Under the pieces are notes generated by a model. The model did no database searches. It saw only the letters and a list, made by a program, of their open reading frames with translations, and was not told the DNA's origin. A DNA stretch of 32,000 nucleotides from Acaryochloris marina S15. GTDB taxonomy: Bacteria > Cyanobacteriota > Cyanobacteriia > Thermosynechococcales > Thermosynechococcaceae. The position numbers and the translations under genes are program-made. The stretch covers positions 5,490,001 through 5,522,000 of the forward strand of contig NZ_CP064923.1 of the NCBI RefSeq assembly GCF_018336915.1, written 5' to 3'. Numbering within the stretch: position 1 is the first letter of the stretch; each line of letters begins with the position of its first letter. This document shows, in pieces, positions 600 through 23,460 of this stretch.

Positions 600-2363
600 G
601 TGGCAATACACCTTCGTAACTGGCTGGCGGATCATCTAGAGATCAGTCCTCGCCGTAAAGCAGAAATCTATCACAGCCTCCTCGATTCAGTCAGTTTAGG
701 GGATATCAGTTACTGGCTGCAGGTGCTTTTCTCGGCAGGCATTGCCACTCTCGGATTGGTCTTAAATAGTCCAGCCGTCATTATTGGTGCCATGCTCATT
801 TCTCCTTTGATGGGAGGCATTTTGGCCAATGGCTTAGCCTTTGCTGTGGGTGATTTGGTCTTAGGCACCCGGGCTATCGTGAATTTAGCAGTGAGCTGTC
901 TGGCTGCCATTGTCTTTGCCATCCTGATTATTGCCCCTATTCCTTTTAAAGAACTCACCCCTGAAATTGCGGCCCGGACACAGCCGAATGCCCTAGATCT
1001 ATTTATTGCCTTGTTCTCTGGGGCTTTAGGGTCGATTGCCACAGCCAAAGAGCCTAAGGGCGTGGTTACATCCATTCCCGGAGTAGCGATCGCTGTGGCC
1101 CTGATGCCACCCCTTTGTGTGGTCGGCTACGGTATTGGTATCCGTCTCAGCTCTGATGTGGTAGGCATTGGGGGCTTTCAAGTGGCCCGTGGGGGAGGGT
1201 TATTATTCTTAACTAATCTAGCCGCCATCACCTTAATGTCCATGTTGGTGTTTTTGGCCCTCAATATCGGCATGCCCGAAGTCAAATCCCAGGCCGTCGA
1301 ATGGCATGAACAGGATCCCGAAAGCCGATGGGTCAAAAATTTACTGACGCGTCTGCCGGTTACCAATCAGCTCCAGAAAATTGGCAGTTTACCCAGCCGA
1401 CTCGCGGTAATTTTACTCCCCATCCTGGTGTTACTGGTTCCTCTCAGTCAATCTTTTTCGCGATTACAGACACAGTTAGCTCAGAAACAGGAAGATAACG
1501 CCCTGCGCCGACTAGCCACCACGATCTGGCAAGGTAATTTTGCCAATACGGCCACTGGAGAACCTCGGTCCTACATTAGCCAGTTGAATACAACTGCCAT
1601 CGAGGATAAGCTAACGGTGCAGTTAACGGTATTTACCAGCGAACCGTATACTCTCGACGAGCGGCAGCGGTTCAGAGAGACCCTGGCCCGCCAATTAAAC
1701 CGACCGGCCAATTCTCTGGATATCCAGTTGATTGAGATTTTAACGGCTTCCAATGAGCTGCTAGCTCGGCTCTCCGATGACCCGGTGGTGACAGAACCTA
1801 TCACCCCAGAAGCTTCACCCATCAGCGTCTCCCAGGCTCAGGTTAATTTACTGCAAACGGTTGATACTGCCTTGGGAACGATGGTACTTCCCGCTCCTGC
1901 TCTCCCCCTCCGTCACGAAGTCAGCACGAGTGCGATTGCCCCCCTCACTCTAAAAATTTTCTATCTCAGCAATCGTGACATTGGGGGTGATGCCCAAACA
2001 TTACTGCGAGAAGACCTGCGCAATCGACTCCAGTCGCCGATGACTCAGGTCATTTTGGAGCGAGTACCGACGTTCCCCACCCCCTTAACTTTTGAATTAG
2101 ACCTGTCAGCCATTTCTCCCGAGAGTCAACAAACGTTGAATCAGGTGGGCACGATTCTGCAACAGCAGCCTAATTTGTCGGTGGATATTGTGGCTCGGGC
2201 CGAAACCTTAGAAAATCCCGTGATGAACAGTAATCGGATCAAAGCAGTCCAAACGTTTTTGACCCAAACTTGGCGCATCGATCAACAGCGCATCAACAGC
2301 CGATCAGGTCCTGAGTTGGAGCGGGGAGAACAGCCTACTATTCTGCTCAAAATTAACATGTAG
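600..2363 (+). CDS. DUF389-family integral membrane protein with a long soluble C-terminal extension
   Basis: 587-aa ORF with a GTG start. The N-terminal half (YWLQVLFSAGIATLGLVLNSPAVIIGAMLISPLMGGI...) matches the DUF389/TIGR00341-type hydrophobic domain as I remember it. The C-terminal ~300 aa are hydrophilic with internally similar modules. Confidence 0.75.
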   Translation: MAIHLRNWLADHLEISPRRKAEIYHSLLDSVSLGDISYWLQVLFSAGIATLGLVLNSPAVIIGAMLISPLMGGILANGLAFAVGDLVLGTRAIVNLAVSCLAAIVFAILIIAPIPFKELTPEIAARTQPNALDLFIALFSGALGSIATAKEPKGVVTSIPGVAIAVALMPPLCVVGYGIGIRLSSDVVGIGGFQVARGGGLLFLTNLAAITLMSMLVFLALNIGMPEVKSQAVEWHEQDPESRWVKNLLTRLPVTNQLQKIGSLPSRLAVILLPILVLLVPLSQSFSRLQTQLAQKQEDNALRRLATTIWQGNFANTATGEPRSYISQLNTTAIEDKLTVQLTVFTSEPYTLDERQRFRETLARQLNRPANSLDIQLIEILTASNELLARLSDDPVVTEPITPEASPISVSQAQVNLLQTVDTALGTMVLPAPALPLRHEVSTSAIAPLTLKIFYLSNRDIGGDAQTLLREDLRNRLQSPMTQVILERVPTFPTPLTFELDLSAISPESQQTLNQVGTILQQQPNLSVDIVARAETLENPVMNSNRIKAVQTFLTQTWRIDQQRINSRSGPELERGEQPTILLKINM

Positions 2364-3361: not shown

Positions 3362-3510
3362 GTCAGTTAATTCATACCTGTTAAGACTTGTGCTTTCTAA
3401 GGTTCATTTTTTTGTATCCACCAATACAACAATCAACCGATAGACTTGATATTTCTTGTATACATACTCTATTCATCAAAAAACAATAATTCCTTAAAAA
3501 ATACTTGTTT

Positions 3511-3636
3511 CTAGGGTTCCGATTTGAGTTCCGTCCTTACTTAAATGCCTGGTCCAAGAGAAACAGCTAGCTGCTTTCATACCTGTTTTATACCGGTTGG
3601 CAGTGAGTGACACGGAGGGATAAAAGCCCGGGAGAA
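3511..3636 (+). promoter_or_regulatory. guanidine-I riboswitch aptamer (ykkC-yxkD motif, subtype 1)
   Basis: The three conserved ykkC blocks are present in the right order and spacing: CTAGGGTTCCG (3511-3521), GGTCCAAGAG (3551-3560) and ACACGGAGGGATAAAAGCCCGGGAGA (3610-3635). It sits in the 5' leader of the operon that starts at 3787. Confidence 0.9.
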
Positions 3637-3688
3637 TGAACATTAACGCCGTATCCGTTAATGGTTGTCTCCGCGGGTTTTGTGTTTT
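3626..3688 (+). terminator. riboswitch expression platform: intrinsic terminator overlapping the aptamer 3' strand
   Basis: GCCCGGGAGA (3626-3635) pairs with TCTCCGCGGG (3668-3677), with one bulged G. The inner stem is ATTAACG (3642-3648) / CGTTAAT (3656-3662). The U-rich tract TTTTGTGTTTT (3678-3688) follows. Confidence 0.7.
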
Positions 3689-3786
3689 AAATGGACAGGG
3701 CTCATCTTCCTCTAAAATGACGAAGGAGAAACAACATCAATAAAGAAATTAGCTTGACGAAGTAAAAAACACATTTTCTCGATATT

Positions 3787-4983
3787 ATGGCTGAAAATCC
3801 GACCTTTGGTCCTCCAAACTCTAATCCTGATTTTTCTTCCACCGAGGCCAATCGTGCCTTAGAAAAAGAAGCACAACTCCCCCTCACAGGCTGGCAACAA
3901 GAAGTCGATCGAGGATTAGAACTGGGCTTAGAAGCAGCAGCTAGCATCCGGGATCGCAGCATTCCTACCTTCTCACGAGGAGAACTGCCCCACTATGCAG
4001 GTATCAACACCTTTCTCAAAGCGCCTTACCTAGAAGATGTGCGTAAAGTCGGTGAGTACGATATTGCTGTTGTGGGCGTTCCCCATGACTCAGGCACCAC
4101 CTATCGTCCCGGCACACGCTTCGGTCCTCAGGGCATTCGTCGGATTTCAGCCCTCTATACCCCCTACAATTTCGAGATGGGCATCGATTTGCGGGAGCAG
4201 ATTACCCTCTGTGACGTGGGCGATATCTTCACTATCCCCGCCAACAACGAAAAATCCTTTGACCAAATCTCTAAAGGAATAGCCCATATCTTCAGTTCTG
4301 GGGCTTTTCCCATTATTTTAGGAGGTGATCACTCCATTGGATTCCCCACCGTTCGCGGCGTCTGCCGCCATTTGGGAGATAAGAAAGTCGGTATCATCCA
4401 CTTCGATCGCCATGTGGATACCCAAGAAACCGACCTAGATGAGCGCATGCATACCTGTCCTTGGTTTCATGCCACCAACATGGATAACGCTCCCGCTAAA
4501 AACCTGGTACAGCTAGGCATCGGTGGTTGGCAAGTGCCTCGCCAAGGGGTCAAGGTCTGCCGAGAGCGAGCCACTAATATCTTGACCGTCACTGACATTA
4601 CCGAAATGGGTCTAGATGCTGCCGTTGACTTCGCCCTAGAAAGAGCCTTGGACGGCACAGACTGTGTGTATATCAGTTTCGACATTGACTGTATTGATGC
4701 CGGATTTGTCCCCGGTACCGGCTGGCCAGAACCCGGTGGTCTCATGCCCCGAGAAGCGCTCTATATGCTCGGTAAAATCATTCGACAAGCGCCCGTCTGT
4801 GGCCTGGAAATTGTCGAAGTTTCGCCCCCCTATGACGTCAGCGATATGACCTCTCTGATGGCCACGCGGGTGATCTGCGATACCATGGCCCATCTGGTTC
4901 TCTCTGGACAACTGCCCCGTCAGCAAACACCCGACTATATTCACCCTGAAGCCAATATGGCAGTGGGTTCTGAGTGGGTTTAG
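3787..4983 (+). CDS. gdmH: arginase/agmatinase-family ureohydrolase; probable Ni-dependent guanidine hydrolase (GdmH/Sll1077-like). Pipelines would usually call it agmatinase SpeB.
   Basis: 398 aa. All arginase-fold metal-ligand motifs are present: ILGGDHSIGFP, IIHFDRHVDTQ and YISFDIDCIDAGFVPGTGWPEPGG. It is the first gene after a guanidine-I riboswitch and is followed directly by HypA/HypB-like genes. Confidence 0.85.
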   Translation: MAENPTFGPPNSNPDFSSTEANRALEKEAQLPLTGWQQEVDRGLELGLEAAASIRDRSIPTFSRGELPHYAGINTFLKAPYLEDVRKVGEYDIAVVGVPHDSGTTYRPGTRFGPQGIRRISALYTPYNFEMGIDLREQITLCDVGDIFTIPANNEKSFDQISKGIAHIFSSGAFPIILGGDHSIGFPTVRGVCRHLGDKKVGIIHFDRHVDTQETDLDERMHTCPWFHATNMDNAPAKNLVQLGIGGWQVPRQGVKVCRERATNILTVTDITEMGLDAAVDFALERALDGTDCVYISFDIDCIDAGFVPGTGWPEPGGLMPREALYMLGKIIRQAPVCGLEIVEVSPPYDVSDMTSLMATRVICDTMAHLVLSGQLPRQQTPDYIHPEANMAVGSEWV

Positions 4984-4986
4984 GCC

Positions 4987-5367
4987 ATGCATGAAACAGA
5001 CATGACCAAGGCCCTGATCATGACGGTCAAAGATTGGTACGACTCCCAACCCGAAGATCCAAAAATCACCAAAATTCATTTGGTTGTCGGTCGGTTTACC
5101 TGTGTTGAACCCGTCAGCTTGCAGTTCGCCTATGAAGTTCAAACCCGTGACACTTTCTTAGCCGGGACAGAACTGGTGATTCGAGAAACGCCTTTAATCG
5201 CCTTTTGTCACCCCTGCCAAAAAGAATATTCCCCAGCCATCGGCTTGCAGTATTCCTGTCCTGACTGTGGAACGCCGATGGAAGACATCCGGTCCGGTCG
5301 CGAACTCAAAATTGACCATATCGAATATTGTTCTGATTCAGCCCAAGCTTATGCACCAAACTGTTGA
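4987..5367 (+). CDS. hypA: HypA-like nickel metallochaperone (GhaA-type accessory protein)
   Basis: 126 aa. Has the N-terminal MHE nickel-binding motif and two CxxC pairs (CHPCQ, CPDCG) forming the zinc site. The ATG is 3 nt after the upstream stop codon. Confidence 0.85.
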
Positions 5368-6049
5368 CGCCGCCCTAGGCATTAACCTCTTACATGCCAA
5401 TCAAGAAGGGGCCAATCACAACCAAGCACATTTTGATGAATGGGGGGTGACCTGTTTCAACATTATGAGCAGCCCTGGTGCAGGAAAAACGGTGCTGTTG
5501 GAGAAAACCCTAGCGGCTCTCAGCCCAGAACTCAAACTGGCCGTCATCGAAGGCGACATGACCACCGAATTGGATGCCGATCGATTACGGGCTTACGATG
5601 TCCCCGTGGTGGCCATTAACACCGGGCGATCCTGTCACCTTGACGCCAAGATGGTCGCGGGTGGCATCCACCAATTGGAGCATTGCACTAATCCTAGTGA
5701 ACTGGATTTAGTGCTGGTAGAGAATGTCGGGAACCTCGTATGTCCGGCAGAGTTTGAAGTAGGAGAGCATGCCAAAGTGGCCCTACTCAGCGTGACAGAG
5801 GGGGAAGATAAGCCGCTGAAATATCCCGTGATGTTTCAAGCAGCCGATTGTTTATTGGTGACCAAGATAGATTTAGTTCCCTATCTCAATATTGACATTG
5901 AGCAAATCAGCCAGAATGTCCGTCAGCTCAATCCCCATGCCACGATTATTCCGGTATCTGCACAAACAGGAGCAGGGCTTGCTGAATGGTATGAATGGGT
6001 GCGTCAACAGGTCGCCCAGCCGAGTCGGACTGCAGTCGGTCGTCATTAG
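5351..6049 (+). CDS. hypB: HypB-like nickel-dependent GTPase (GhaB-type accessory protein)
   Basis: P-loop SSPGAGKT, metal/switch motifs GRSCHLDA and [12 protein letters not shown], and specificity motif TKIDL. I place the start at ATG 5351 ([10 protein letters not shown]...), which overlaps hypA by 17 nt. The track start at 5267 would add 28 residues read out of frame across hypA. Confidence 0.85.
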
Positions 6050-6076
6050 TTGTTTGTAAGCAGGTAAAAGACTTCT

Positions 6077-7105
6077 ATGAAGCGAAGAAATTTTCTATCC
6101 TTATGTTTGGTATTTTTCTGCAGTTTGCTGCTGACCGTCAGCTGTAGCTCCTCACCCGAGACGACAACCGACTCTTCTGTCGGCTCAGGGGAGCCAGTTG
6201 TGATTGGTTACAGTAACTGGGCGGGTTGGTGGCCTTGGGCCATTGCCGAGCAAGAAGGGCTATTTGAAAAAAATAAGGCCAATATCAAACTCAAATGGTT
6301 TGATAATTACACCACTTCAATGGAAGCCCTGGCAGCGGGTCAATTAGACGGCAATTGCCAAACCCTCAACGATACGATTTCCTTTGCCGGCAGTGCCACC
6401 AAGGGAGAAGTCGCGGTCCTAGTCAATGACAACTCTGCTGGTAATGACAAGATTATCGTTACGGCCGATATTAATAGTATTCAAGACTTGAAAGGTAAGA
6501 AAGTTGCCGTTGAAGAAGGAGTAGTGGACGACTTTTTGTTGACCTTAGCCTTGGAAGAAAACGGCATGAAGCGAGACGATGTGGAGATCGTGGGCTTGGA
6601 AACGGGTAAGGCCGTGACTGCTTTTGTGGCAGGTAAAGTGGATGCAGTCGGGGCATTTCCCCCGTTCTGGGCAACAGCGTTAAAGCGGGAAGGCAGTAAA
6701 GAGCTGATCTCGTCCAAAGAGTTTCCGGGTGCCATTCCAGACTTGCTCGTGGTGACCCAAGATTTAGTGGATAATCGCCCCGATCAAGTGCAGGCCCTGG
6801 TAGATACTTGGTTTGATATCTTAGCCTTCATAGATAAAAATCCCCAAAAGGCTGATGAAATTATGGCGAAGCGGGCCGGGGTCTCTCTGGAAGAGATGAA
6901 GCAATTCAAAGAAGGAACGCGCTTCTTCTCCCTAGAAGATAATCTGGAAGCATTTTCGGATGGTGAAGACATGAAGCATATGCCCTTTGCTGCCAAACGG
7001 ATGGCTAAGTTTATGGTGGATGTCGAATTCATTAAAGAAGCACCGGATTTAACCCAAGTGCTGGATGACCAGTTTGTTAAGGCCTATCAAGCCAAGCAAG
7101 CATAG
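6077..7105 (+). CDS. ABC transporter substrate-binding protein, NitT/TauT (NMT1/SsuA-like) family, probable lipoprotein
   Basis: 342 aa. Signal peptide ends in LLLTVSC-SS (lipobox-like Cys). The overall pattern (IGYSNWAGWWPW..., KGKKVAV..G) is typical of nitrate/sulfonate/taurine-type binding proteins. Confidence 0.8.
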   Translation: MKRRNFLSLCLVFFCSLLLTVSCSSSPETTTDSSVGSGEPVVIGYSNWAGWWPWAIAEQEGLFEKNKANIKLKWFDNYTTSMEALAAGQLDGNCQTLNDTISFAGSATKGEVAVLVNDNSAGNDKIIVTADINSIQDLKGKKVAVEEGVVDDFLLTLALEENGMKRDDVEIVGLETGKAVTAFVAGKVDAVGAFPPFWATALKREGSKELISSKEFPGAIPDLLVVTQDLVDNRPDQVQALVDTWFDILAFIDKNPQKADEIMAKRAGVSLEEMKQFKEGTRFFSLEDNLEAFSDGEDMKHMPFAAKRMAKFMVDVEFIKEAPDLTQVLDDQFVKAYQAKQA

Positions 7106-7173
7106 TTCCCTTCTATTCCTGGAGCTAGTTCGCTCCAGGAATACCAGATTAGTCATGTGTCTCTGCAGCGATT

Positions 7174-8019
7174 ATGACCTCCAACTCGTCAGTTCCCCCA
7201 CCCCAACCGAACCATCAGTCTGGTGGATTAAAACCCACTATTTTTTGGCGTATTGCTGAGGACATTCCAGGGAATCTCAAGTGGGCCTTAATGGTGACTT
7301 CCATCGTTCTTCCCTTCGGACTTTGGTGGGGAATCGCTAGCACTGGAGTCGTTAATTCCGACTTCTTGCCATCTCCTACCCAAGTGGGTCAAGCCTTACG
7401 CGATCTCTACTCTGATGGCTTGCTCGTCCATGATACGTTGATGAGCTGCTTTAGGGTTGGGGTAGGTTTTCTACTCGCTGCAATTGTTTCTGCGCCTGTT
7501 GGCATAGCGATGGGGACATTTACCAGTATTCGGTCCTTATTGGAACCGATTATGGGCATTGTTCGTTATATGCCAGCGCCCGCCTTTACGCCCCTGTTAC
7601 TGATCTATTTAGGGGTAGATGAACGACCCAAAATCGCCCTCATTTTTATCGGTACGGTGTTTTTCAACATCTTGATGGTGATGGATGCCGTCAAGTTTAT
7701 TCCCAAGGAATTGCTGGAAACAACTTATACCCTAGGGGGAAGACGTCACCAAGTGCTCTTCCAGGTGATTACTCCCTATGTGATTCCCAATATTCTGGAT
7801 GCCTTTCGTGTCAATATGGCAGCCTCTTGGAATTTAGTCGTGGTTGCTGAATTAATTGCTGCAGAAGAAGGCTTAGGGAAACGCATTGCCATAGCTGAAC
7901 AGTTTTTCAGGACTGATACTATTTTTGCCTGCCTCATTGTGTTGGGACTGATTGGGTTTGGTCTAGATTTATTATTCCGCTGGCTACAACGTGCTGTCTC
8001 TCCCTGGGCAATCGACTAA
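7174..8019 (+). CDS. ABC transporter permease, NitT/TauT family
   Basis: 281 aa and multi-pass hydrophobic. The EAA-like loop region (AEEGLGKRIAIAEQFF) is typical of BPD_transp_1 permeases. Confidence 0.85.
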   Translation: MTSNSSVPPPQPNHQSGGLKPTIFWRIAEDIPGNLKWALMVTSIVLPFGLWWGIASTGVVNSDFLPSPTQVGQALRDLYSDGLLVHDTLMSCFRVGVGFLLAAIVSAPVGIAMGTFTSIRSLLEPIMGIVRYMPAPAFTPLLLIYLGVDERPKIALIFIGTVFFNILMVMDAVKFIPKELLETTYTLGGRRHQVLFQVITPYVIPNILDAFRVNMAASWNLVVVAELIAAEEGLGKRIAIAEQFFRTDTIFACLIVLGLIGFGLDLLFRWLQRAVSPWAID

Positions 8020-8028
8020 CTCATCACT

Positions 8029-8805
8029 ATGCACTTAGAAGTTTCCCATCTGTATAAGCATTTCTCGACTCGCCAGGGGAAACTGCTCGTTCTCAAAGAT
8101 ATTAATCTGCACGTGGAGACGGGAGAGTTTGTCTGTGCTGTAGGGGCATCAGGATCTGGCAAAACCACACTTCTACGTATGATAGCGGGGCTAGACGCCT
8201 CTACCTCAGGCAAAATCATGGTCGATGGTCAGCCCGTGATTGGTCCGGGTGCCGATCGCGGCATGGTGTTTCAAAGTTACACCCTCTATCCCTGGTTGAC
8301 AGTTGCCAAAAATGTGGGATTTGGCTTAAAACTGCAGGGGGTTGCTAAGCCCCTGCGCGCTAAGCGGGTGGCTGAATATCTAGATGTGGTGGGATTGACC
8401 CAGTTTGCCGATGCTTATCCCAGAGAGTTGTCAGGGGGGATGAAGCAGCGAGTTGCCATTGCCCGAGCATTGGCCTCACAACCCAAAGTATTACTGATGG
8501 ATGAGCCGTTCGGAGCATTGGATGTGCAAACGAAAGAAACCATGCAGCAGTTTTTGCTGAATTTATGGCGACGAACCGGCACCAGCATCTTAATGATTAC
8601 CCATGACGTAGACGAAGCTATTTTCCTGTCACAGCGCATTTACGTGCTCACGGCTCGCCCTGGTTCGGTCCAGCGAGAGATCTCGATTAACCTACCGACG
8701 GAACGGACTTACGCCGTCAAACGTCAGCCCTTATTTCAAGACTATCGAGATGAAATCATGGATCTGTTGCGGGAAACCCCAGAACTCCATCCAGTGATAG
8801 AGTAA
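8029..8805 (+). CDS. ABC transporter ATP-binding protein, NitT/TauT family
   Basis: Walker A GASGSGKTT, signature LSGGMKQR, Walker B LLMDEPF, H-loop ITHD. The ATG is 9 nt after the permease stop. Confidence 0.9.
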   Translation: MHLEVSHLYKHFSTRQGKLLVLKDINLHVETGEFVCAVGASGSGKTTLLRMIAGLDASTSGKIMVDGQPVIGPGADRGMVFQSYTLYPWLTVAKNVGFGLKLQGVAKPLRAKRVAEYLDVVGLTQFADAYPRELSGGMKQRVAIARALASQPKVLLMDEPFGALDVQTKETMQQFLLNLWRRTGTSILMITHDVDEAIFLSQRIYVLTARPGSVQREISINLPTERTYAVKRQPLFQDYRDEIMDLLRETPELHPVIE

Positions 8806-8812
8806 GGCTCAA

Positions 8813-9343
8813 CTATCCAGGTTGCCGCTCTAGGGTGGCTTCCATCGTATTGAGAAGATAATGCTCGCTCATCATGCCGCTCGATAAACGATAGCTATTA
8901 TCGGCAATGCGATGAATCGTTTCAAAACCACTACGGCGATCGCGATCGCCTAATACCCAAAACCGCTGGACAATAGATTCGGGACCAATCCAGCCTTCCC
9001 CTTCTACTTGGCCCAATTGGCTATGTTTGAGGACGTAAGTATACCGCTGGTCGTTACTGCCTAAACGTCCCCGATACTGCATGATAATTTCTGAGGTACC
9101 TTGACGGGCCACCGCCGACTCTTCAGGAAACAAAAGCTTGGTCGCCATGGTAAACCAGCTATCACAGTTCCATGCCACCAGGGTGCGGCCATGGATGGCA
9201 ACGGGATCTTGGTTACGTTCCATCCAAGTCCCTTTGAAAGTCCATCGGCCCGCATCTAATAAGAAGGTGTGAGCCGCAGCGCCTTTTTTCTCTGGCATTT
9301 CGTTAATGTAGGTGAATCTTTGTCCTTCTCTTAGGATGCCCAT
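8813..9343 (-). CDS. hypothetical protein (176 aa), no motif recognised
   Basis: Clean ORF 17 nt downstream of anmK on the same strand. Soluble-looking composition. The alternative-frame ORFs here are shorter. Confidence 0.6.
   Translation of the reverse strand: MGILREGQRFTYINEMPEKKGAAAHTFLLDAGRWTFKGTWMERNQDPVAIHGRTLVAWNCDSWFTMATKLLFPEESAVARQGTSEIIMQYRGRLGSNDQRYTYVLKHSQLGQVEGEGWIGPESIVQRFWVLGDRDRRSGFETIHRIADNSYRLSSGMMSEHYLLNTMEATLERQPG
8936..8949. repeat. tandem overlapping HIP1 octamers (GCGATCGCGATCGC)
   Basis: Two overlapping copies of the cyanobacterial highly iterated palindrome GCGATCGC. Single copies recur throughout the window. Confidence 0.9.
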
Positions 9344-10502: not shown

Positions 10503-12938
10503 TTACCCTTCTCCCAAAGAACGTAGAACACTGAGAACGTCGTTGTAACTCCCCGTTCGGCCTTGTGCAGCATAGAGATCGGCTGCTTTTTTTAGATCCG
10601 CAATGGCTTCCTTGCGTTTGTTTTGCACCGAATAAAGCAAGCCCCGTTTATAGTAATCTTCAGCCGCATCTGGCTTAATTCGCAGGGCATCACTGAGATC
10701 GCTTAAAGCCCCATCTAAATCTTTGAGCTGGATCTTGGCACTGGCACGGTTAGAGTAAGCCGCTTGACTCCGCACCTCACTGTTGCGAGTGTCATTAATT
10801 TTGATCGTGCGCCCATAGTCTTGGATCGCCTTTTCATACTGCTTTAATCGCAGATAAATATTGCCCCGCACCGTATGTAGGGCAGCACTGCTGGGGTTAA
10901 TCCCTAAGCCTTTGTTGCAGTCTTCGAGGGCGCGCTGTAGTTCATTGAGGGAAAATAAGGCCCCACAACGATTATTGAGGACAAAGGGATCTTTAGGATT
11001 AATGGCAATGGCGCGATCATAATCTTTGAGTGCACCTTCAAAATCCGCTGGCTGACCTTGGTAGGCACGCAGTTCACCCCTCAGCAAATAGGCGTTGGTA
11101 GAGTTGGGATTAATCTTTAGAGCCTGATCAAAGGATTTACGAGCTTGCTCGATTTCACCCTGTTCATAGAAGACACCTCCCAGATTGGTATGGGCACGGG
11201 TGAGCTGAGGGTTAATGCTCAGAGCCTGATTGTAATCTGCGATCGCATCTTGTTTTTGATTCAACCTAGAGTTGGCATAGCCCCGACTCGTATAGTCTTT
11301 CGCCGTTCGTACTGACAGTTCTAGGGCGCGTTCCCAGTCTTGTTCTGCTCCATCTTGGTCCCCCAGAACCGAACGATAGCTACCTCGGTTCACATGGGCT
11401 GATAAATGATTGGCATCCGCTTGGATAGCCTTATCTAGTTCTTTGACCGCCGCTTCCAGCTTCCCCTGGACAAAAAATACAGAGCCTAAATTGAGATAGC
11501 CTTGGGCCTGGTTGGGTTGGAGACGAATGGCTTGACGATAATCGGCAATGGCCTCCTCATACTTACCCATTTCTACCTGGGCATCTCCCCGATGGTTATA
11601 AGTTTCCGCATCCTTGGAGTCGAGAGAAAGGGCTTCGTTATAGTCTGCGATCGCAGTTTGGTATTCCCCAGTGGCAAAGTGAATTTCGCCTCGTTCTCGA
11701 TAGGCCGCTGCGGTTTCTGGCTGCTGCTCTAACAAGGTATCGAACTGGGCGATGGCGTCCGGGTATTTTCCAATCTCACCATAGGTTTCGCCTAATTTAA
11801 GCGCTGCTTCGGTGTAATCATCTTTTAGCGCTAAGGCCTGTTCAAAATTCTCCGTGGCAGACCGCCAGTTCCCCGATTGGGCCGCCTGCTGACCCCAGAA
11901 ATAATGCCATTGGGGACGGAAGAGAAAAAAGAGACTTGTGGATGCGATCGCAACGCCACCCACCCCTAACCCAATCCACTTCAACCGCCGTTTAGGCTGC
12001 TGGGTCTGGAGCGCAGGCTCAGCCGGAGAGGGCTCAGGGACTGCTGGCGGAGGTGAAGGGGCTGCAGGAGCAACTTCATCTTCAGCCGAGGGATGGGAGA
12101 GCACCGTGCTGGCTTGAGCCACAGACTGTAATGCCGTTCGCATAGCTGCCACCGTGGCAAACCGATGTTTCGGATGGGGTTTAACCAGTTGATCCAGCAA
12201 ACTTCTAAAGGGGGAGCTCAGATGCTGGCAATCCTGCTTCCACAGCAATCGTCCCGTCGCACTATCCGTTTCAAACTGATCGGGGAACTTGCCCGTCAGC
12301 AAATAAATCGCCGTTAAACCCAAACTATATAGATCGCTGGCAAACGTAGGTCGCCCCGCTGCCTGCTCTCTGGGCATAAAGCCAAGGGTGCCAATTACAA
12401 TCGAGCGACTGGGCTGTCCTTGAGCATTGATTTGGGTAGCCATCACTTCCTTGACGGCACCAAAATCAATCAGACAAGGCTGTTGATCAGCATTACGAAC
12501 AATAATATTGTCGGGTTTAATATCTCGGTGAATAATGTTGTGGCCATGAATGTAATTGAGCACATTGATAATCTGATAAAGCAGCTTGATCACCTCTGCT
12601 TCATTCAGTGAGCCTTGGGCGGTGACAATTTCCGTGAGGGTCTGGCCTTCAATCCATTCCTGCACCAAATTAAATTGCCCAGTTTCTTCAAAGTAAGCAA
12701 ATAGATCGGGAATTTGAGGATGCCCTTGGCCAATTCGTTCTAAGATGGCCGCTTCTCGCTGAAATCGTTCTAAAACAATTTTCTGCACCCGATCATTGTT
12801 AAGCACAGGTTTGAGCTGTTTAATCACACAAAATCGCCGAGATGGCATTTGCTCATCTTCAGCTAAGAAGGTTTTACCGAATCCCCCTTCATTTAATGCC
12901 TTGAGGATACGATATCGGCCATTAACAAGTCCTACCAT
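10503..12938 (-). CDS. membrane-anchored Ser/Thr protein kinase with C-terminal TPR repeats
   Basis: Hanks kinase motifs: [32 protein letters not shown]. These are followed by a Pro-rich linker, one TM segment ([20 protein letters not shown]) and ~12 TPR-like repeats. Confidence 0.9.
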
Positions 12939-12991: not shown

Positions 12992-13876
12992 TCATGCCGA
13001 TAGGGTAACCTGCATTCGCTTCTGTTGCCGTAAATAGCCATGCAAGATTTCAGCATCCATACCGTGGAGCATCAGCCGAAAGCCAGCATGCAGCGTAATT
13101 AACGGAATACAGGGATGACGATTGTTGACTAAGCTCAAGGCCGTCGGATCTTGTAACAACTTGCTAATGTAAATGGCGATGGTTTCATCTAGCTGCAACG
13201 AATTGGTGGCCCGCCAAAAATCATGATCGGATAAAAACAAAGCATAGACTGGTGTATACGCCTCAATGGCAGATTGCAAATCCACAAAATTAGTCCATCG
13301 TTGGCATCCAGGATTGATCTCAAATTCTCCATCCGTAATCGCGTCAAAGTTGAGGCTTTGAGGGGCCTCTAGCGTCCGATTCTCAGCCTTGAGCTTTTGA
13401 TTCAACTCAATAATAAAGTTGTAAATATTCAAATCGTGAATCAGGAAGGTATTGGCCTTCAAATCTTCTAAGCAGGTGGGGCGCAAGGATTGGGTAGACG
13501 TAATCTCGACCCCAGCATTATCGGCAATAAACTTGAGAATCTCCGTCCCAATCACGAAATGCCGCAAAATCAGATAATTACTATCGGGGGTCACAAAGTA
13601 CTTCAACCCCCAATAAATAAGCTGATGCAGCAGCCGAGACGAGCTTAACCATTCGGGGATCACGATTCGTAGTAGCTTCACCACCACAATCATCAGCTTG
13701 GCCAACGGGCGCACAAAGGGCAAAAAGATCCGGCGGGAGCGGCTGTTGTGGCCCCTCAGCAATGCCCGCTTAGATTCATCGTGAAGGGGCAAACTGGCAT
13801 CCAAATAGAGCGCCAGCCAAGGATTGGGGTCTTTGATATTAATGATTTGTTGATCAAACTCTGTCTGCCAACTCAT
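12992..13876 (-). CDS. hypothetical protein (294 aa from the ATG), third gene of the KAS III / HDO operon
   Basis: ATG at 13876 shares its A with the upstream TGA (TGATG). The track start at 13879 is a TTG one codon earlier. I recognise no catalytic motif. There is one hydrophobic stretch (FLPFVRPLAKLMIVVVKLLRIVIP). Confidence 0.65.
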   Translation of the reverse strand: MSWQTEFDQQIINIKDPNPWLALYLDASLPLHDESKRALLRGHNSRSRRIFLPFVRPLAKLMIVVVKLLRIVIPEWLSSSRLLHQLIYWGLKYFVTPDSNYLILRHFVIGTEILKFIADNAGVEITSTQSLRPTCLEDLKANTFLIHDLNIYNFIIELNQKLKAENRTLEAPQSLNFDAITDGEFEINPGCQRWTNFVDLQSAIEAYTPVYALFLSDHDFWRATNSLQLDETIAIYISKLLQDPTALSLVNNRHPCIPLITLHAGFRLMLHGMDAEILHGYLRQQKRMQVTLSA

Positions 13877-14577
13877 CAATAATGTCCTAGTTCTTCTAGC
13901 TGTAAGAGATATAACCGAGCGGTAACTTTGGCGGTGCGGACAATCGCCTCATCCATTCCTGTTATATCCAAAATTGAGCTAGCCAGCAGATCTTCGAGTT
14001 CTTGCAGATGATCTTCATCATGGGCTGCATGATAGCGATAGAACTCTAGCTGATCTGGATCGGTGATTAAGGGGTTTTCGTCTAAGGCATTGGCAAAGGT
14101 TTGGGCGAACCGCTTTCCTAAGCCCTCGATCACAAACATGGCCCCCAACAGATCGAAGGGGTTGGGCTGAGATGCCCGTTGATACATCCAGGCTGAAAGC
14201 GCTTCGGACCCAATATTTTTGTGCGCCCCTATCAATTCGGCTTTTTGGCCCCCGGAGGCTAGATAACTTTTCTCCAGCATTTGATAGTCAAGATGTTCTG
14301 TGGCCGCATGGCGGATAAAGACAGAACGCTGGTCCAGATATGGCGCTGTAATCGAAGAGGCTGCTCGGCTAATCCAGCCGCTGCCTTCCACCACCTGCTG
14401 GTAATGATCGCTAATTAAGGTGAGATAATCTGCTAGCCTGAGCTGCTGCTGCATTGCTCGGGCGACAATCGGTACTTTTAACAACCGACTTTCAAAATCG
14501 GCCCATACCATCGTTAACTGGCGCAGCACTCGCTGGGACTGGGTGACGTTGCTGTGAAGTCGAGGTTGGGTTTGCAT
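13876..14577 (-). CDS. heme-oxygenase-like fold, iron-containing redox enzyme family protein (HDO/Haem_oxygenase_2-like)
   Basis: 233 aa and predicted all-helical. Candidate metal ligands are RHAATEH, VIEGLG and HAAHDEDH (H-x3-D-x2-H, as in CADD/UndA-type diiron enzymes). The start is 4 nt after the KAS III stop. Confidence 0.65.
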   Translation of the reverse strand: MQTQPRLHSNVTQSQRVLRQLTMVWADFESRLLKVPIVARAMQQQLRLADYLTLISDHYQQVVEGSGWISRAASSITAPYLDQRSVFIRHAATEHLDYQMLEKSYLASGGQKAELIGAHKNIGSEALSAWMYQRASQPNPFDLLGAMFVIEGLGKRFAQTFANALDENPLITDPDQLEFYRYHAAHDEDHLQELEDLLASSILDITGMDEAIVRTAKVTARLYLLQLEELGHY

Positions 14578-14581
14578 GAAA

Positions 14582-15706
14582 TTACACCACTGTTAAATGC
14601 ATAAAGGCCGCAATACAGCGCCCACTTTCGGGTACAAAGCAGAGGATCCGTTGTCCAGGCTGCAAAGACTGTTGCTGAACCAGCTCCTCTAGCATGATAA
14701 AGATGGAGGCCGTCCCGGTATTGCCATAGCGTTCTAGGTTATTGAACCATTTTTCTTCCGCAATCATGGCTCCTGTGCGAAGCAGCAATCGCTTCATCTC
14801 TTCGCCTAGGGAGTGGGAAGAATAATGGGGTAAAAAATAATCGATGGCATTGGGATCCAGATCGTATTTCTCTAGCAGCTCCAGATAGTAGCCAACCCAA
14901 ACCGGAAACATGGCGTAGAGAATATCAAAGTCTTGCTTAAGGGCAATGGCACCCGCTTCATAGGCCGCCTGGGGAGATTCATATAACCCCCATCCCAGAT
15001 CGTCCGTATTGCTTTTAGCCCCGGCATACATACAGGGTGGGAACCGGTCGGCAAAGGACTTAAACTGAATCCAATCAATCCGCAAGGACACTCCATCGGG
15101 CTTAGGATTGGGCTCTAAGACTACAGCTCCTGCCCCATCGGAGAGGGTCCATCGCAAGAACTCGATTTGTGGATCGGGCCTGGCATCTTGATCGTAAAAA
15201 GGCTGATAGACCTTAGGGCGAAACCAGCGGCTCGCAAATTCACTCCCGCTCGCGACTGCCAGCTGAGACTCGCTCACTTTGACATTGAGCCAGGCATTTT
15301 TAACCGCCATCAGACTGCTGGCACAAACACTCTGAAATGAAAAAATTGCTAGCGGTGGAATACCTAGCTCACCATGGACTGCACTCGCAAACCCTGGCAC
15401 CAGATAATCCCCTTGGGTGGTACTCGTTGCTAGCAGATCCACCTGTTCGGGCTGGCAACGAGCTTGTTTAAGAGCATCATGAATGGCATTCGCCGCCATC
15501 CCTGCGTTGGTATATCGGTAGCCACCTGCTGTATCTAGGGCGTAGAAGCGCTGCTTAATCCCATTTTTGCGCAAGATAGCGGATCCTAGGGTTGAGCTAC
15601 GCTTACTAATACTGCCGATGTACGCCGCCATATCCGCGTTGGCAACGGGCTCTCCTGGCAAAAATTTGCCGACTCCAGTGATGTAAACCTCTTGGCAAGG
15701 AGACAT
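14582..15706 (-). CDS. beta-ketoacyl-ACP synthase III (FabH)-like condensing enzyme
   Basis: Thiolase-fold KAS III pattern with a candidate Cys-His-Asn triad: FQSVCASS, FLPHYSSH, YGNTGTASI. I prefer ATG 15706 (MSPCQEVYITG...) over the track TTG at 15712. Confidence 0.85.
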   Translation of the reverse strand: MSPCQEVYITGVGKFLPGEPVANADMAAYIGSISKRSSTLGSAILRKNGIKQRFYALDTAGGYRYTNAGMAANAIHDALKQARCQPEQVDLLATSTTQGDYLVPGFASAVHGELGIPPLAIFSFQSVCASSLMAVKNAWLNVKVSESQLAVASGSEFASRWFRPKVYQPFYDQDARPDPQIEFLRWTLSDGAGAVVLEPNPKPDGVSLRIDWIQFKSFADRFPPCMYAGAKSNTDDLGWGLYESPQAAYEAGAIALKQDFDILYAMFPVWVGYYLELLEKYDLDPNAIDYFLPHYSSHSLGEEMKRLLLRTGAMIAEEKWFNNLERYGNTGTASIFIMLEELVQQQSLQPGQRILCFVPESGRCIAAFMHLTVV

Positions 15707-15714
15707 GGGCAACG

Positions 15715-18857: not shown

Positions 18858-20051
18858 TTAGTCCGGTAAGTCATATTGACTGACAATGCGCTTGGCGTAT
18901 TCAGGCACATGGGCATCTACCTTATCAGGATAGTTACGCTTCACATACAGGTAGTTACGGGTAAAGTGCGAATCAATCGAGAACCGCGCATATTCTAAAC
19001 CTCGGGGACCAATCTTGTCGATCACCACCCCCATCAGTTTCGCCGCCCACATGGGCAAGGTCACCCCCTTATCATAGGCAGGGATGCTGTTTTGCACCGC
19101 CGCATGGCGATCGCCTTCAGAAATTACAGGCTGGGTTTCCAGCTGATCCATCACCAGATCCAGCATTTCCTGGCCCGTCTCGTTGCGCACCACAATCCAC
19201 TGCCAGCCGTAGGGAGAACCCATATAACCCACCACAAGATCCGCCAGGGAATTCGTGTAGTCAAAACAGCTCATGCAGGAAGGGGCAAAAATGTCTTTGA
19301 GTTTATTGGTCTTCAAACCAAAAAAGGGCACCATCTCAATCGACCCATCTTCATGCTTGAAGTGGATACGGAAGTCCTGCATAAATTCATAATGGACAAC
19401 CGTTTCTGGGGAACGACTCGTGGTGTCTAAGAAGGTCTGCAACCCTGCTCGATTCACGTTGTCTACGCAGGGCGTCCCCAGCACATAGAGTTTCTCAAGC
19501 CCTAAGCTATCCTGAACCGACCGTAAAGCTTGGGTTTGGCACCCTACTCCAATCACACAGAGGCGCTTCATGCCCGACTGTTCAATCTGCTCTAGCACCG
19601 AGAGATTGGGAGATAGCGTGGGCTTATTCACCCGAGCCGCCAACACTTCTTCTGGGGTACGGGCAATAATCGGCTTGGGTTGAAATCGATCTTCATCCGT
19701 ATTTTGGATACAGACAACGCCCTCAACTTTGCCCTGCTTCAGCAGTTCCATGCCGATGGTGCTGACAATCCCCGTCCATTGCGCCCCCGGAATGGGATCG
19801 ACCTTGCGGGCCGTCATCATTTGGTTGCTGACCCCGAAGTACCAATCATCTTCGTTATCCAAGTCACGGCTGCGGCCATGGGCTTTTTCTTCCAGCTCAG
19901 CCACCTGCTGATTTAAGAAGGCACAGGCTTCCTTAACGTAGTGAATGTAGTAGGTATCGCAAAGACCACATTCACTACAGAGTTCTTTAGCCGGTCGGCG
20001 ACTCGTGGATTTGAGGGCTTTGGCTTTTTTATGGGGTTGTACCGCAGTCAT
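18858..20051 (-). CDS. coenzyme F420 hydrogenase/dehydrogenase beta-subunit family Fe-S flavoprotein (HCAR / BciB-like chlorophyll-intermediate reductase)
   Basis: 397 aa. The N-terminal Cys cluster CSECGLCDTYYIHYVKEAC and the overall FrhB_FdhB N+C architecture resemble plant 7-hydroxymethyl chlorophyll a reductase and cyanobacterial ferredoxin-type divinyl reductase. Confidence 0.8.
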   Translation of the reverse strand: MTAVQPHKKAKALKSTSRRPAKELCSECGLCDTYYIHYVKEACAFLNQQVAELEEKAHGRSRDLDNEDDWYFGVSNQMMTARKVDPIPGAQWTGIVSTIGMELLKQGKVEGVVCIQNTDEDRFQPKPIIARTPEEVLAARVNKPTLSPNLSVLEQIEQSGMKRLCVIGVGCQTQALRSVQDSLGLEKLYVLGTPCVDNVNRAGLQTFLDTTSRSPETVVHYEFMQDFRIHFKHEDGSIEMVPFFGLKTNKLKDIFAPSCMSCFDYTNSLADLVVGYMGSPYGWQWIVVRNETGQEMLDLVMDQLETQPVISEGDRHAAVQNSIPAYDKGVTLPMWAAKLMGVVIDKIGPRGLEYARFSIDSHFTRNYLYVKRNYPDKVDAHVPEYAKRIVSQYDLPD

Positions 20052-20190
20052 AGTTAAATTAGGGTTTCAGTACTCCGAAGCAAGCGCAAAGTACCGAATT
20101 GAATGGTTATCTCGCATTCCGATTGTAAACAGTTTCGGGACCGCACCCCAAGTCCCCCCAGTTTTTCCTTTGATGACTGATTTTTAGAGG

Positions 20191-21729
20191 TCAATCATTA
20201 TGGGCATGATCAAATTCATAGACATAAAACATGCGGCTAAAGCGCTGGAGTAAATAGCCCCCTGTCGCTAACACCACACTGCAAAGCGCTAACTCCCAAA
20301 ACTCAGGCGGGGGAGTCATTAAGAATAAAGAAGTATCAGAATGAGTGATGGCGTATAGGGCTTGCGATCGCGCATCCAGCATCACCCCCAATCCAAAACA
20401 AACCACTGCGCTAATCAACATCACGATTTTCAGCTGTTGAATCCGTTTCAAGGCTTGGCGGCAAACTTGGCAATCTTTAGTGTGGGTGTGCCAAACATCA
20501 AAGAGCTGTTCTTTATCTCGCTGAGGGGGAGGGAGCTGGGGGTCACATTGCCAGGGAATCCCTCCGCCTGCTCGGGTTTTGATCCACTGCCGCAGGGCAA
20601 TCACCATTTTGTCTTGGGGATTAGGGGTATAGACCGTCTCTAGCCAATTTCCCTGCTCCTGATGCCCAATTCGTTTTTCCTGATAGTGGAGAAACACTAA
20701 ATCTTGATGGAGGAATAGGGGGGCCAATACATGGCCTAACCATTTCGGCATCGGCCAAGCAAAAAAGCCCAACCCAGGGGGCGCTTTCCCATCCTTATCT
20801 TTAATCAAGACTTGGCAGCCAATGTGGCGACACCAACCGGGACGAGTGGGACTGGCATAGAGTGCCAAAATCATTTGCCCCTCTCTCGCAAAAGTGGTTT
20901 CAATCCGCATATGACAAGGAGGCTGAAAATTGTGGACTGCCTTTCTTAAAATCGTATTGGAGACGGGTGTGATGTTAAAGGCAAAGCCTTCTTGAGTCGA
21001 GACTTCTCGCACCGCACTCATATCGTAATAATTGGCATCCCGATAGCGATTACCCATAATGCCGTGATGGGAGACAGGGACATGGGCCGGGTCCGCAATA
21101 TTTTCCATAAAAAAGTCCCAGCCATAGGGCAAGTCTCGCACATACCAAAACAGCTTAATGGCCCGATCGGGCAACTCTTCTAGCTCCGGGATAATCCGAG
21201 GAGAACGCTCCTGGCTGAGGGACTGGGAGGCCTCACTATTATCTGGCCACACCCAAATTAAACCCTGCTGAACTTGGGTCGGATAGGCGATGGCACACGA
21301 TCGCGGATTGGCTCGATGCTGTTTAGCCGTCTCTAAATCCAGACTTTGAGGAATATCTAAGCAGTGGCCCTCACCATCAAATCGCCAGGCATGATACGCA
21401 CACATCAAAGTGCCATCTACTTCGATCCGTCCTTCGGATAGCGGTGCAAGGCGATGAGGACAGCGATCTTCAAAACAATGCCATTCTCCCTGCTGATCAT
21501 GCCAAATCACCAGATCTTTTCCCAATAGCTGAATGGCATGAGGGCTTTTCGGATCCAAAAACTCAACCACTGCCACTGGATACCATTGCTGTGTCCATTG
21601 AAATTGTTCAGGTGTAGCGGTTTCAGCTTCTGCAACGGAGGGGGCGGTCTCTACCTGCTGAGATGAATCGTGGGTGGGATCAAGGGACAAGCGGTTTTGA
21701 GTCGTCACTGTCTTAACAATTGCGCTCAC
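20191..21729 (-). CDS. Rieske [2Fe-2S] non-heme iron oxygenase, pheophorbide a oxygenase (PAO/Tic55/LLS1)-like
   Basis: Rieske motif CPHRLAPLSEG ... CAYHAWRF, mononuclear iron region DPAHVPVSHHG, C-terminal CxxC (KDCQVCRQA) and two terminal TM helices, as in PAO-family proteins. GTG start. Confidence 0.85.
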   Translation of the reverse strand: MSAIVKTVTTQNRLSLDPTHDSSQQVETAPSVAEAETATPEQFQWTQQWYPVAVVEFLDPKSPHAIQLLGKDLVIWHDQQGEWHCFEDRCPHRLAPLSEGRIEVDGTLMCAYHAWRFDGEGHCLDIPQSLDLETAKQHRANPRSCAIAYPTQVQQGLIWVWPDNSEASQSLSQERSPRIIPELEELPDRAIKLFWYVRDLPYGWDFFMENIADPAHVPVSHHGIMGNRYRDANYYDMSAVREVSTQEGFAFNITPVSNTILRKAVHNFQPPCHMRIETTFAREGQMILALYASPTRPGWCRHIGCQVLIKDKDGKAPPGLGFFAWPMPKWLGHVLAPLFLHQDLVFLHYQEKRIGHQEQGNWLETVYTPNPQDKMVIALRQWIKTRAGGGIPWQCDPQLPPPQRDKEQLFDVWHTHTKDCQVCRQALKRIQQLKIVMLISAVVCFGLGVMLDARSQALYAITHSDTSLFLMTPPPEFWELALCSVVLATGGYLLQRFSRMFYVYEFDHAHND

Positions 21730-22021
21730 AGCTAGGGTTTATCCTCCCCAATATAATCCTCAACGTTCAACGGGTTAATCGATTCACACCTAGCTCACCA
21801 ACCCACCCATGCCTTTTGGCCCTGTCCCTCATCTGGATTAAAATCGAGGAACCGCTTACCTCGCTTCACCATCAGTAAACCCAGAAGGATGGGAATGAAG
21901 GGCCTAGGTTTGACAAATGGCCAAAGAATGCGAATCATAATCCCCAGAAGCTTTGACAAGTATCCGAGGAATACTGAGCTCGATTTGTCTCCGGCTTGTT
22001 TAGCTGACCTCCGTCAGCCCC

Positions 22022-23460
22022 GCTTTTGACCGCTTCGTTCCACTCACAGTCAAAAGCAGAATATAAGGAGCGTGACCGCAGGAAACATATTCTAGGGAGT
22101 AAAGCTACATTCCCTAAATTTGTTAAAATCAACTTATGCTCGTAATGAACTACCGATACAGGATCTACCCAAATTTTGAGCAAGAACAGCAAATGCTGAG
22201 CTGGCTTGAGACGTGCCGCAGGGTTTTTAACTATGCCCTGCGAGAACGTAAAGACTGGATAAATTCTCGGAAGTGTCCAGCAGATCGATGCTCTTTGCAG
22301 TCCGAATATATCGTTGCGGCTGATGCCCCTTACCCTAGCTATTACGCTCAGAAAAAAGGATTGGCAGTCGCAAAGAAAGAGAATAACTGGCTTAAAGCTG
22401 TCCATTCTCAAGTATTGCAAGAGGTCATTGGACAACTGGATGGGGCATTTACATCTATGAAGGAAAGAGGTCATGGCTTCCCACGCTTTAAGAAGTTTGG
22501 GCAGTATCGATCCTTTCTCTTTCCTCAATTCAAGAGCAGCCCCATCCAAGGTAGACAAATTAAGCTGCCCAAAATTGGGCTGATGCCCATTGTCTTCCAT
22601 CGGCAAATACCAGATGGTTTTGCGATTAAGACAGTGCGAGTCATTCGTAAGCATTCTGGGTGGTATATCTCCCTGTGCTTGGTGGCAGATGTGTCTATCC
22701 CAGAGGTGCCGCCTCACGGTCGGTCCATAGGTATAAACGTAGGGCTGAGCTATTTCCTGAGTACCAGTGATGGCGAACAGGTTGATAGACCTCGCTTTTT
22801 CGACAAACTTCACCGCAAGCTGGAATTGCTGCAACGATGTTTGAAGCGGAAGCAAAAACGGTCTAATAATCGTGCCAAGCTGATTCAGAGAATAGGGCGA
22901 GTCCATGAACAAATTGCGGCATCTCGGCTGGACTGGCAATTTAAGCTGGCTCATCACTTGTGTGACCAAGCTCAGATGATCTTTGCTGAGGATTTGGACT
23001 TCCGAATCATGGCAAAAGGCTTGTTGGGCAAACATACTCTTGATGCAGGGCTTGGGCAATTCCTGAATGTGGTTTTGCCTTGGGTTTGCTTCAAGCGTGG
23101 AGTTTACTATGCCAAGGTTGACCCTAATGGTACGTCTCAAGAATGCCCTGACTGTGGAGCCAGGGTAAAGAAAGACCTAAGTACGAGGATTCATGAGTGT
23201 CATGAGTGTGGGTCTGTAAAGCCTAGAGATGTTGCCAGTGGTCAAGTTATCAATGCCCGTGGTCTATCGGGTATTCAAACTGCAAGTGGACGGGATCTAT
23301 CGGGGTATCAGGAGACTGATGCTAGACAAGACCGAACGAAGCTTGAAGAACTCAAGAGTAATCTTGAGAAGCCCGCGCTCTATGCGTCAGCATGAGCGTC
23401 GGGAGAAGTCACACTCGCTTATTCTCTATTTCGTTGTCCACCCTCAACCTAAAGTGACTC
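22022..23460 (+). mobile_element. IS200/IS605-family (IS1341-like) element carrying tnpB only; ends not defined
   Basis: tnpB ORF with no tnpA nearby. A subterminal hairpin GCTTTTGAC (22022-22030) / GTCAAAAGC (22049-22057) lies ~80 nt upstream of the ATG. The structured 3' region extends to the next gene. Boundaries are approximate. Confidence 0.6.
22136..23395 (+). CDS. tnpB: IS200/IS605-family transposase accessory protein TnpB (RNA-guided nuclease family), RuvC-I Asp replaced by Asn
   Basis: 419 aa. Typical N-terminus YRYRIYPNFEQEQQMLSWLETCRRVFNYAL, RuvC-II IFAEDL, zinc ribbon CPDCG...CHECG and RuvC-III PRDVASGQVI. The RuvC-I motif reads GINVGL (AAC at 22736-22738) where GIDxG is expected. 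Confidence 0.85.
   Translation: MLVMNYRYRIYPNFEQEQQMLSWLETCRRVFNYALRERKDWINSRKCPADRCSLQSEYIVAADAPYPSYYAQKKGLAVAKKENNWLKAVHSQVLQEVIGQLDGAFTSMKERGHGFPRFKKFGQYRSFLFPQFKSSPIQGRQIKLPKIGLMPIVFHRQIPDGFAIKTVRVIRKHSGWYISLCLVADVSIPEVPPHGRSIGINVGLSYFLSTSDGEQVDRPRFFDKLHRKLELLQRCLKRKQKRSNNRAKLIQRIGRVHEQIAASRLDWQFKLAHHLCDQAQMIFAEDLDFRIMAKGLLGKHTLDAGLGQFLNVVLPWVCFKRGVYYAKVDPNGTSQECPDCGARVKKDLSTRIHECHECGSVKPRDVASGQVINARGLSGIQTASGRDLSGYQETDARQDRTKLEELKSNLEKPALYASA

Follow-up and report, generated by a model that had tools for sequence, protein, structure and literature searches.

Why does a pair of HypA- and HypB-like genes lie directly behind the gene for an arginase-fold hydrolase in Acaryochloris marina S15, rather than next to a hydrogenase? 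The pair was encountered in a 32,000-nucleotide stretch of contig NZ_CP064923.1 (hereafter "the window"; all positions count from its first letter). A first-pass annotation, made from the letters alone, proposed that the two proteins are nickel-insertion factors dedicated to the neighboring binuclear-metal hydrolase, a member of a family that normally uses manganese.

We are highly confident that the whole stretch from 3500 to 8805 is a cyanobacterial guanidine-assimilation locus—riboswitch-gdmH-ghaA-ghaB-gimABC—in which GhaA and GhaB form the dedicated nickel-delivery pair of the guanidine hydrolase GdmH. Seven features follow one another in series on the plus strand between these positions. 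The biochemical steps that we infer for A. marina S15 all follow from orthology, since the nickel dependence and the chaperone requirement are carried over from Synechocystis. The first-pass annotation had spotted the chaperone pair and the hydrolase; it had missed the riboswitch, an NtcA box, the gimABC genes, guanidine as the substrate, and the prior publication of the system.

A HypA/HypB-type pair tightly packed behind gdmH

The segment singled out at first pass, 4987–6049, brackets both chaperone genes exactly. The first, ghaA (4987–5367, plus strand), encodes a HypA-type nickel metallochaperone of 126 aa (PF01155, E=1.3e-29; TIGR00100). The second, ghaB (5351–6049, plus strand), encodes a HypB-type GTPase of 232 aa (PF02492; TIGR00073). 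GhaA scores 112.3 bits against TIGR00100 (cut-off 88.1) and GhaB 310.6 bits against TIGR00073 (cut-off 121.2); scores so far above the curated cut-offs place the two proteins in the HypA and HypB families, respectively. The expected motifs are present: GhaA carries MHE at its N-terminus and a pair of CxxC motifs (CHPC at 74 and CPDC at 91), and GhaB has the P-loop SSPGAGKT, the metal-site residues CH (95) and VCP (130), and the motifs ENVGNL and TKID. A phmmer search with GhaA gave no match among PDB sequences at E<=0.001.

The stop codon of gdmH occupies 4981–4983, and the ATG of ghaA lies 3 nt further on; ghaA and ghaB in turn overlap by 17 nt (5351–5367). A 3-nt spacer followed by a 17-nt overlap means that the three genes are tightly packed. 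The pair had been described as translationally coupled to the arginase-fold gene. Of that description the packing stands, and coupling of gdmH, ghaA and ghaB may reasonably be inferred from the spacing. In Synechocystis, gdmH-ghaA-ghaB form a single transcript (PMC12704784).

In that organism, Sll1078 (formerly HypA2) and Sll1079 (formerly HypB or HypB2) have been renamed GhaA and GhaB and are presented as the nickel maturases of GdmH (PMC12704784). On the evidence of identity levels, the A. marina S15 pair is GhaA/GhaB, orthologous to Sll1078/Sll1079 and not to the hox-linked HypA1/HypB1: each protein is ~76% identical to its Synechocystis salina counterpart (locus L071), against 30% (HypA) and 41% (HypB) for the hydrogenase-linked pair on the A. 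marina plasmid pREB4. Closer still, GhaA is 94% identical to an A. marina chromosomal protein, and a protein identical to GhaB is encoded on 13 public contigs, including JBPVIU010000027.1 of NCBI GCA_052827785.1, in which the same locus is present.

The proposal of a dedicated insertion pair for a binuclear-metal hydrolase thus matches the published role of the orthologous Synechocystis operon, whose hydrolase is 87.5% identical to the one encoded here. GhaA, a HypA-type protein with an MHE nickel site and a zinc ribbon, and GhaB, a HypB-type GTPase, would together insert nickel into GdmH, with the Cys-His-Cys site of the G-domain serving as the metal site of GhaB. They would be old paralogs of the hydrogenase HypA and HypB, and would themselves be dispensable for hydrogenase. 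For Synechocystis GdmH, a further report notes much higher Vmax and kcat values with Ni-loading chaperones co-expressed in Escherichia coli (PMC11410670), and by analogy GhaA and GhaB would be expected to enhance the nickel loading and activity of A. marina S15 GdmH.

Conservation of the gdmH-ghaA-ghaB order

Relatives of GhaB were collected by scanning one genome per species, and the best 80 loci were retained. All 80 are cyanobacterial, and they come from many orders. The closest of these GhaB proteins are found in an Acaryochloris MAG (95% identity) and on the chromosome of A. marina MBIC11017 (93%). Across the segment 3787–6049, two Acaryochloris copies (L001 and L002) are 93–97% identical to the window at the protein level and only ~82–85% identical at the DNA level; high protein identity combined with lower DNA identity is a sign that gdmH and ghaAB are under strong purifying selection.

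The series gdmH-ghaA-ghaB recurs, in this order, in 75 of the 80 loci. The exact spacing is less uniform: the 17-nt overlap between ghaA and ghaB recurs in 34 loci, and the 3-nt spacer between gdmH and ghaA in 23. Two of the five exceptions to the gene order are cut by a contig end, and the remaining three (L044, L047 and L076) carry no gdmH within ~8 kb upstream of ghaAB, so the linkage of ghaAB to gdmH is not absolute. The gdmH of these three may lie elsewhere in their genomes. In each, ghaA-ghaB is located near positions 7500–8700 of the locus; its neighbors are two-component regulators in L076, and SUI1, DUF4278 and an amine oxidase-like gene in L047.

A search of 1.84 billion representatives (50% clustering) was used solely to show the gap between GhaB and other HypBs. 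The GhaB representatives among its matches were all fragments (P0175, P0188 and P0208), none of full length. The other full-length HypB representatives found are at most ~55% identical to GhaB, versus at least 74% for the GhaB relatives, which are therefore far closer to this protein than is any other HypB.

A separate, hox-linked pair in a close relative

A family assignment to HypA and HypB raises the alternative that GhaA and GhaB are general maturation factors for a NiFe hydrogenase (or a urease) encoded elsewhere, and that their position beside the hydrolase gene is incidental. In its favor, both proteins score above the NCBIfam "equivalog" thresholds of the hydrogenase HypA and HypB models, and they carry those names in public records. 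Also in its favor, the HypB of Helicobacter pylori resembles GhaB (see below) in having no N-terminal metal sites, yet serves both hydrogenase and urease; its structure (PDB 4LPS) is among the structure matches of GhaB.

Within the window, as the first-pass annotation had stated, the pair has no such partners: when the larger ORFs of the 32 kb were all scanned with Pfam, no NiFe hydrogenase subunit, no HypC-F and no urease gene was detected. Several lines of evidence make a general hydrogenase role highly improbable. Firstly, incidental adjacency fits poorly with a gene order that persists in 75 of the 80 loci, where the genes often overlap or nearly abut, and GhaB relatives (at least 74% identity) are well separated from the other full-length HypB representatives found (at most ~55%). 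Secondly, the Hox hydrogenase of Synechocystis needs only HypA1/HypB1; HypA2/HypB2 are not required (PMC4517062, PMC3858816).

Finally, a distinct hox-linked pair is known in A. marina itself. The first-pass annotation suggested looking for a second hypA/hypB pair next to hox/hup genes, and A. marina MBIC11017, the nearest relative with a sequenced genome, has one: its hypA and hypB accompany hoxEFUYH and hypCDEF on plasmid pREB4 (PMC9324425). The annotation of this plasmid places hypA and hypB beside a hydrogenase maturation protease, hypF, hypC and the Ni/Fe hydrogenase alpha subunit; the first 49-kb stretch of pREB4 holds none of the hyp genes, which appear in the second. The plasmid-borne HypB is 271 aa long and starts MCEDCGC, a CxxCGC site. 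Among the pREB4 hydrogenase genes of MBIC11017, only hypAB have chromosomal paralogs. A tblastn search of a plasmid collection with GhaB returned no Acaryochloris sequence among the 30 matches listed. In MBIC11017 and Synechocystis, then, the situation named at first pass as speaking against a dedicated pair, with a sole hypA/hypB pair on which hydrogenase depends, does not hold.

The N-terminus of GhaB

In a mechanical list of ORFs, the HypB frame of the window begins at a GTG (5267). This start was dropped in favor of ATG 5351, which gives a protein beginning MHQTVD, for two reasons: (i) MHQ is found at the homologous ATG in 79 of the 80 relatives, several of which have in-frame stops a few codons upstream, and (ii) independent gene calls give the same 232-aa product on four public contigs with an identical protein.

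Neither a CxxCGC motif nor a run of His residues is found in the N-terminus so defined. All 80 relatives likewise lack a CxxCGC motif and a His-rich N-terminus, in-frame upstream extensions included. The motif check and the relatives both uphold the earlier remark that the HypB-like protein begins at MHQTVD, with no His-rich or CxxCGC extension. By comparison, 72 of the 150 nearest HypB representatives have CxxCGC, and 39 are His-rich.

The start of GhaB is strongly conserved: the 79 relatives with MHQ include 64 with MHQTFD, while only three of the 150 nearest HypB representatives begin with MHQ, all three of them GhaB fragments. In the other frame there is a GhaA tail with the pattern YA(P/S)N, found mainly where ghaA overlaps ghaB (for example YAPN); the simplest explanation is that the constraint on the ghaB start fixes this tail too. 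A role as an extra metal site was also considered for the C-terminal tail of GhaA, which contains Cys, and was rejected, since these Cys residues are not conserved.

The likeness of MHQ to the MHE nickel site at the N-terminus of HypA suggests that MHQ could be a minimal N-terminal nickel site of GhaB, replacing the CxxCGC or His-rich site of HypB. We regard this idea as tentative and rather unlikely to be correct. If true, it would represent a small mechanistic variant inside a known system, and the site may be tuned for handing nickel over to a carboxylate/His binuclear center instead of a Cys4 site.

GdmH, a predicted guanidine hydrolase behind a riboswitch

The gene in front of the pair, gdmH (3787–4983, plus strand), encodes a 398-aa arginase-fold protein (PF00491, E=1.2e-77). 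Its match to PDB entries 7ESR/7OI1, the structures of Synechocystis Sll1077, has E=1.6e-240, with 336 of 384 aligned residues identical (87.5%). The full ureohydrolase set of metal-ligand motifs is present—GGDHS (179), DRHVD (207) and SFDIDCID (297)—and is unchanged in the 7ESR alignment. By this degree of similarity, the arginase-fold gene is gdmH, the orthologue of sll1077. Four reports describe Synechocystis GdmH (Sll1077) as a Ni2+-dependent guanidine hydrolase (PMC12704784, PMC11399263, PMC10927577, PMC11410670), and the A. marina S15 enzyme is predicted, from its orthologue, to hydrolyze guanidine with Ni2+ rather than Mn2+. It would thus be an arginase-fold hexameric hydrolase with Ni2+, not Mn2+, in its binuclear center, and would cleave guanidine to yield urea and ammonium, which would feed nitrogen assimilation.

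Upstream of gdmH lies a Guanidine-I (ykkC) riboswitch aptamer (3500–3636, plus strand). It matches Rfam RF00442 over the full model (1–107) with 71.4 bits, where the gathering score is 63 (E=5.3e-11). The aptamer is followed by a terminator-like expression platform, a long hairpin at ~3625–3688 (plus strand). Its 5' arm, GCCCGGGAGA (3626–3635), is the 3' end of the aptamer, and the element finishes in TTTTGTGTTTT. The hairpin forms in the minimum-free-energy structure and in the centroid structure alike; for the fold as a whole, the z-score is weak (-1.34). Because overlap of the hairpin 5' arm with the aptamer 3' end is the usual layout of an ON-switch, the platform is predicted to work by anti-termination. 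Guanidine binding to the leader riboswitch would then block the terminator hairpin and permit transcription of gdmH-ghaA-ghaB. A Guanidine-I riboswitch was found in all nine related loci that were scanned, and lies upstream of gdmH in eight of them; the exception is L003, where gimABC precedes gdmH and the riboswitch stands before gimA.

An NtcA-consensus box, GTA-N8-TAC (GTATCCACCAATAC; 3414–3427, plus strand), sits 73 nt upstream of the aptamer, as a putative nitrogen-control site in the gdmH promoter. Perfect matches to this pattern number two in the 32-kb window, with 2.95 expected by chance; since the motif has six defined bases and its matches do not exceed chance, the motif alone is weak evidence. 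The box is worth recording because its position agrees with the published NtcA control of gdmH in Synechocystis, where gdmH-ghaA-ghaB is under the control of both NtcA and an RF00442 riboswitch (PMC12704784). The putative box would probably add nitrogen-limitation control to guanidine sensing.

A predicted guanidine importer downstream of the chaperones

Three genes for an ABC importer follow ghaB on the plus strand: gimA (6077–7105), encoding a periplasmic guanidine-binding protein with NMT1/SsuA-like matches (Pfam, NCBIfam); gimB (7174–8019), encoding the permease (BPD_transp_1); and gimC (8029–8805), encoding the ATPase (ABC_tran). In most related loci, gimB and gimC are colinear with ghaB. 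The products of Synechocystis sll1080–1082 are the guanidine importer GimABC, in which GimA binds guanidine with a Kd of ~97 nM, and the residues of the Sll1080 guanidinium site are W59, W62, D135, F205 and D233 (PMC12704784). All five are matched in A. marina S15 GimA—by W48, W51, D124, F194 and D222—at one single offset and at no neighboring offset; the numbering offset between the two proteins (stated as 10) was assumed from this fit, not from the PCC 6803 sequence. GimABC of A. marina S15 is thus predicted, by analogy, to import guanidine.

These surroundings bear on one further alternative, namely that the hydrolase makes polyamines as a standard agmatinase (SpeB2) that depends on Mn, with the HypA/HypB-like genes as unrelated passengers: its top NCBIfam matches are agmatinase models and 7ESR/7OI1 were deposited as "Probable agmatinase 2" (the protein, Sll1077, is now called GdmH), but both model scores fall below their cut-offs (206.8 vs 302; 168.6 vs 174.3 for the equivalog), a guanidine-specific riboswitch governs the gene, the downstream binding protein GimA retains the guanidinium site, and the orthologue was shown, in the reports cited above, to be a Ni-dependent guanidine hydrolase, all of which leaves this alternative scarcely credible. 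The agmatinase and the general hydrogenase readings alike are contradicted by the riboswitch, the conserved gene order, agmatinase scores under the cut-offs and the genetics published for Synechocystis, which favor a guanidine-assimilation locus with its own nickel-delivery pair.

Comparison with known nickel-dependent systems

The closest described system is GdmH-GhaA-GhaB/GimABC of Synechocystis PCC 6803, with which the A. marina S15 locus shares gene order, riboswitch family, an NtcA-type box and the ligand residues of GimA. It differs in its host lineage, Acaryochloris, and has a ghaA/ghaB overlap of 17 nt. No functional difference between the two is evident from sequence.

With the hydrogenase HypA/HypB of A. 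marina pREB4 and E. coli, GhaA and GhaB share folds and families, the MHE and two CxxC motifs of HypA, and the P-loop and GTPase motifs of HypB; the Cys-His-Cys site of the HypB G-domain is likewise present in GhaB. Unlike the HypB of E. coli or of the cyanobacterial Hox type, GhaB has no CxxCGC or His-rich N-terminus. Unlike the hydrogenase pair, ghaAB are not located beside hox or hypC-F, and their client would be a binuclear hydrolase, not a NiFe(CN)2CO site.

The metformin hydrolases (MfmAB/MefH) of Pseudomonas and Aminobacter provide a second instance of an arginase-fold nickel enzyme with HypA/HypB in the same operon; these enzymes require both nickel and co-expressed HypA/HypB (PMC11399263, PMC10927577). 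The MfmA/B chains are among the PDB matches of GdmH (E ~1e-38 to 1e-41). Metformin hydrolase differs in being heteromeric, in acting on another substrate, and in being accompanied by a HupE/UreJ nickel importer instead of a guanidine ABC importer. Its chaperone genes adjoin the hydrolase genes but in another arrangement (directly upstream in one report), and no guanidine riboswitch is reported for it.

The guanidinase of Nitrospira inopinata (PDB 9FEK) is a homologous guanidine hydrolase that also contains nickel, and matches GdmH with E=5.5e-176. In contrast to Nitrospira, the A. marina S15 locus has a dedicated chaperone pair: in comammox Nitrospira genomes no Ni-loading chaperones are found, and their GdmH works regardless (PMC11410670). 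The chaperones are therefore better described as helpful than as universally essential.

Other features of the window

The remainder of the window contains several further features. Immediately beyond the locus, a 176-aa ORF on the minus strand (8813–9343) is convergent with gimC and has no Pfam or PADLOC match. PADLOC scans of the unexplained neighbors returned nothing bearing on the chaperone pair. Two larger genes are unlinked to the gha locus: a DUF389 membrane protein with a long C-terminal extension (600–2363, plus strand; 587 aa), and a Ser/Thr protein kinase in fusion with a large number of TPR repeats (10503–12938, minus strand; 811 aa).

A three-gene cluster at 12992–15712 (minus strand) encodes a DUF6999 protein (E=1.6e-117), a Haem_oxygenas_2-like iron redox enzyme and a KAS III/thiolase-like condensing enzyme; together they could make up a small module for a lipid or a natural product. 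At 18858–21729 (minus strand), the gene for an FrhB/FdhB-like flavoprotein (397 aa) adjoins that for a Rieske/PaO-family oxygenase (512 aa); these genes probably function in tetrapyrrole or chlorophyll metabolism. The FrhB_FdhB match (18858–20051) was considered as a hydrogenase partner and rejected as a resemblance in name only: the family is one of flavoproteins, not a NiFe large or small subunit.

An IS605-family OrfB/TnpB-like protein (OrfB_IS605, HTH_OrfB_IS605, Cas12f1-like TNB) is encoded at 22136–23395 (plus strand) and matches PADLOC Cas12f/Cas12u models, down to E=9e-53. Antisense to it, a 401-aa ORF (21935–23140, minus strand) has no family match and is probably spurious. The final feature, from ~29712 on the plus strand, is an open frame of at least 763 codons that runs past the window end at 32000 and is for that reason missing from the ORF list.

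Significance for Acaryochloris and for genome annotation

The GdmH/GhaA/GhaB system is already known, and the A. marina S15 locus is a plain orthologue of it in another lineage. The nickel dependence of GdmH and the role of GhaA and GhaB reportedly trace to Funck et al. 2022 (Nature 603:515). With the enzyme and its chaperones published in 2022, and their wide cyanobacterial distribution in 2025, the locus adds little to biology at large. What the analysis does show is that a real and non-obvious functional link, between metallochaperones and a hydrolase, can be recovered from raw sequence.

Its practical use is in annotation. The names hydrogenase HypA/HypB and agmatinase persist for these proteins in public records and in NCBIfam equivalog models, and with such labels genome surveys can count too many hydrogenase maturation genes and overlook guanidine assimilation. 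The mislabeling matters in Acaryochloris, where some strains are without the hox plasmid.
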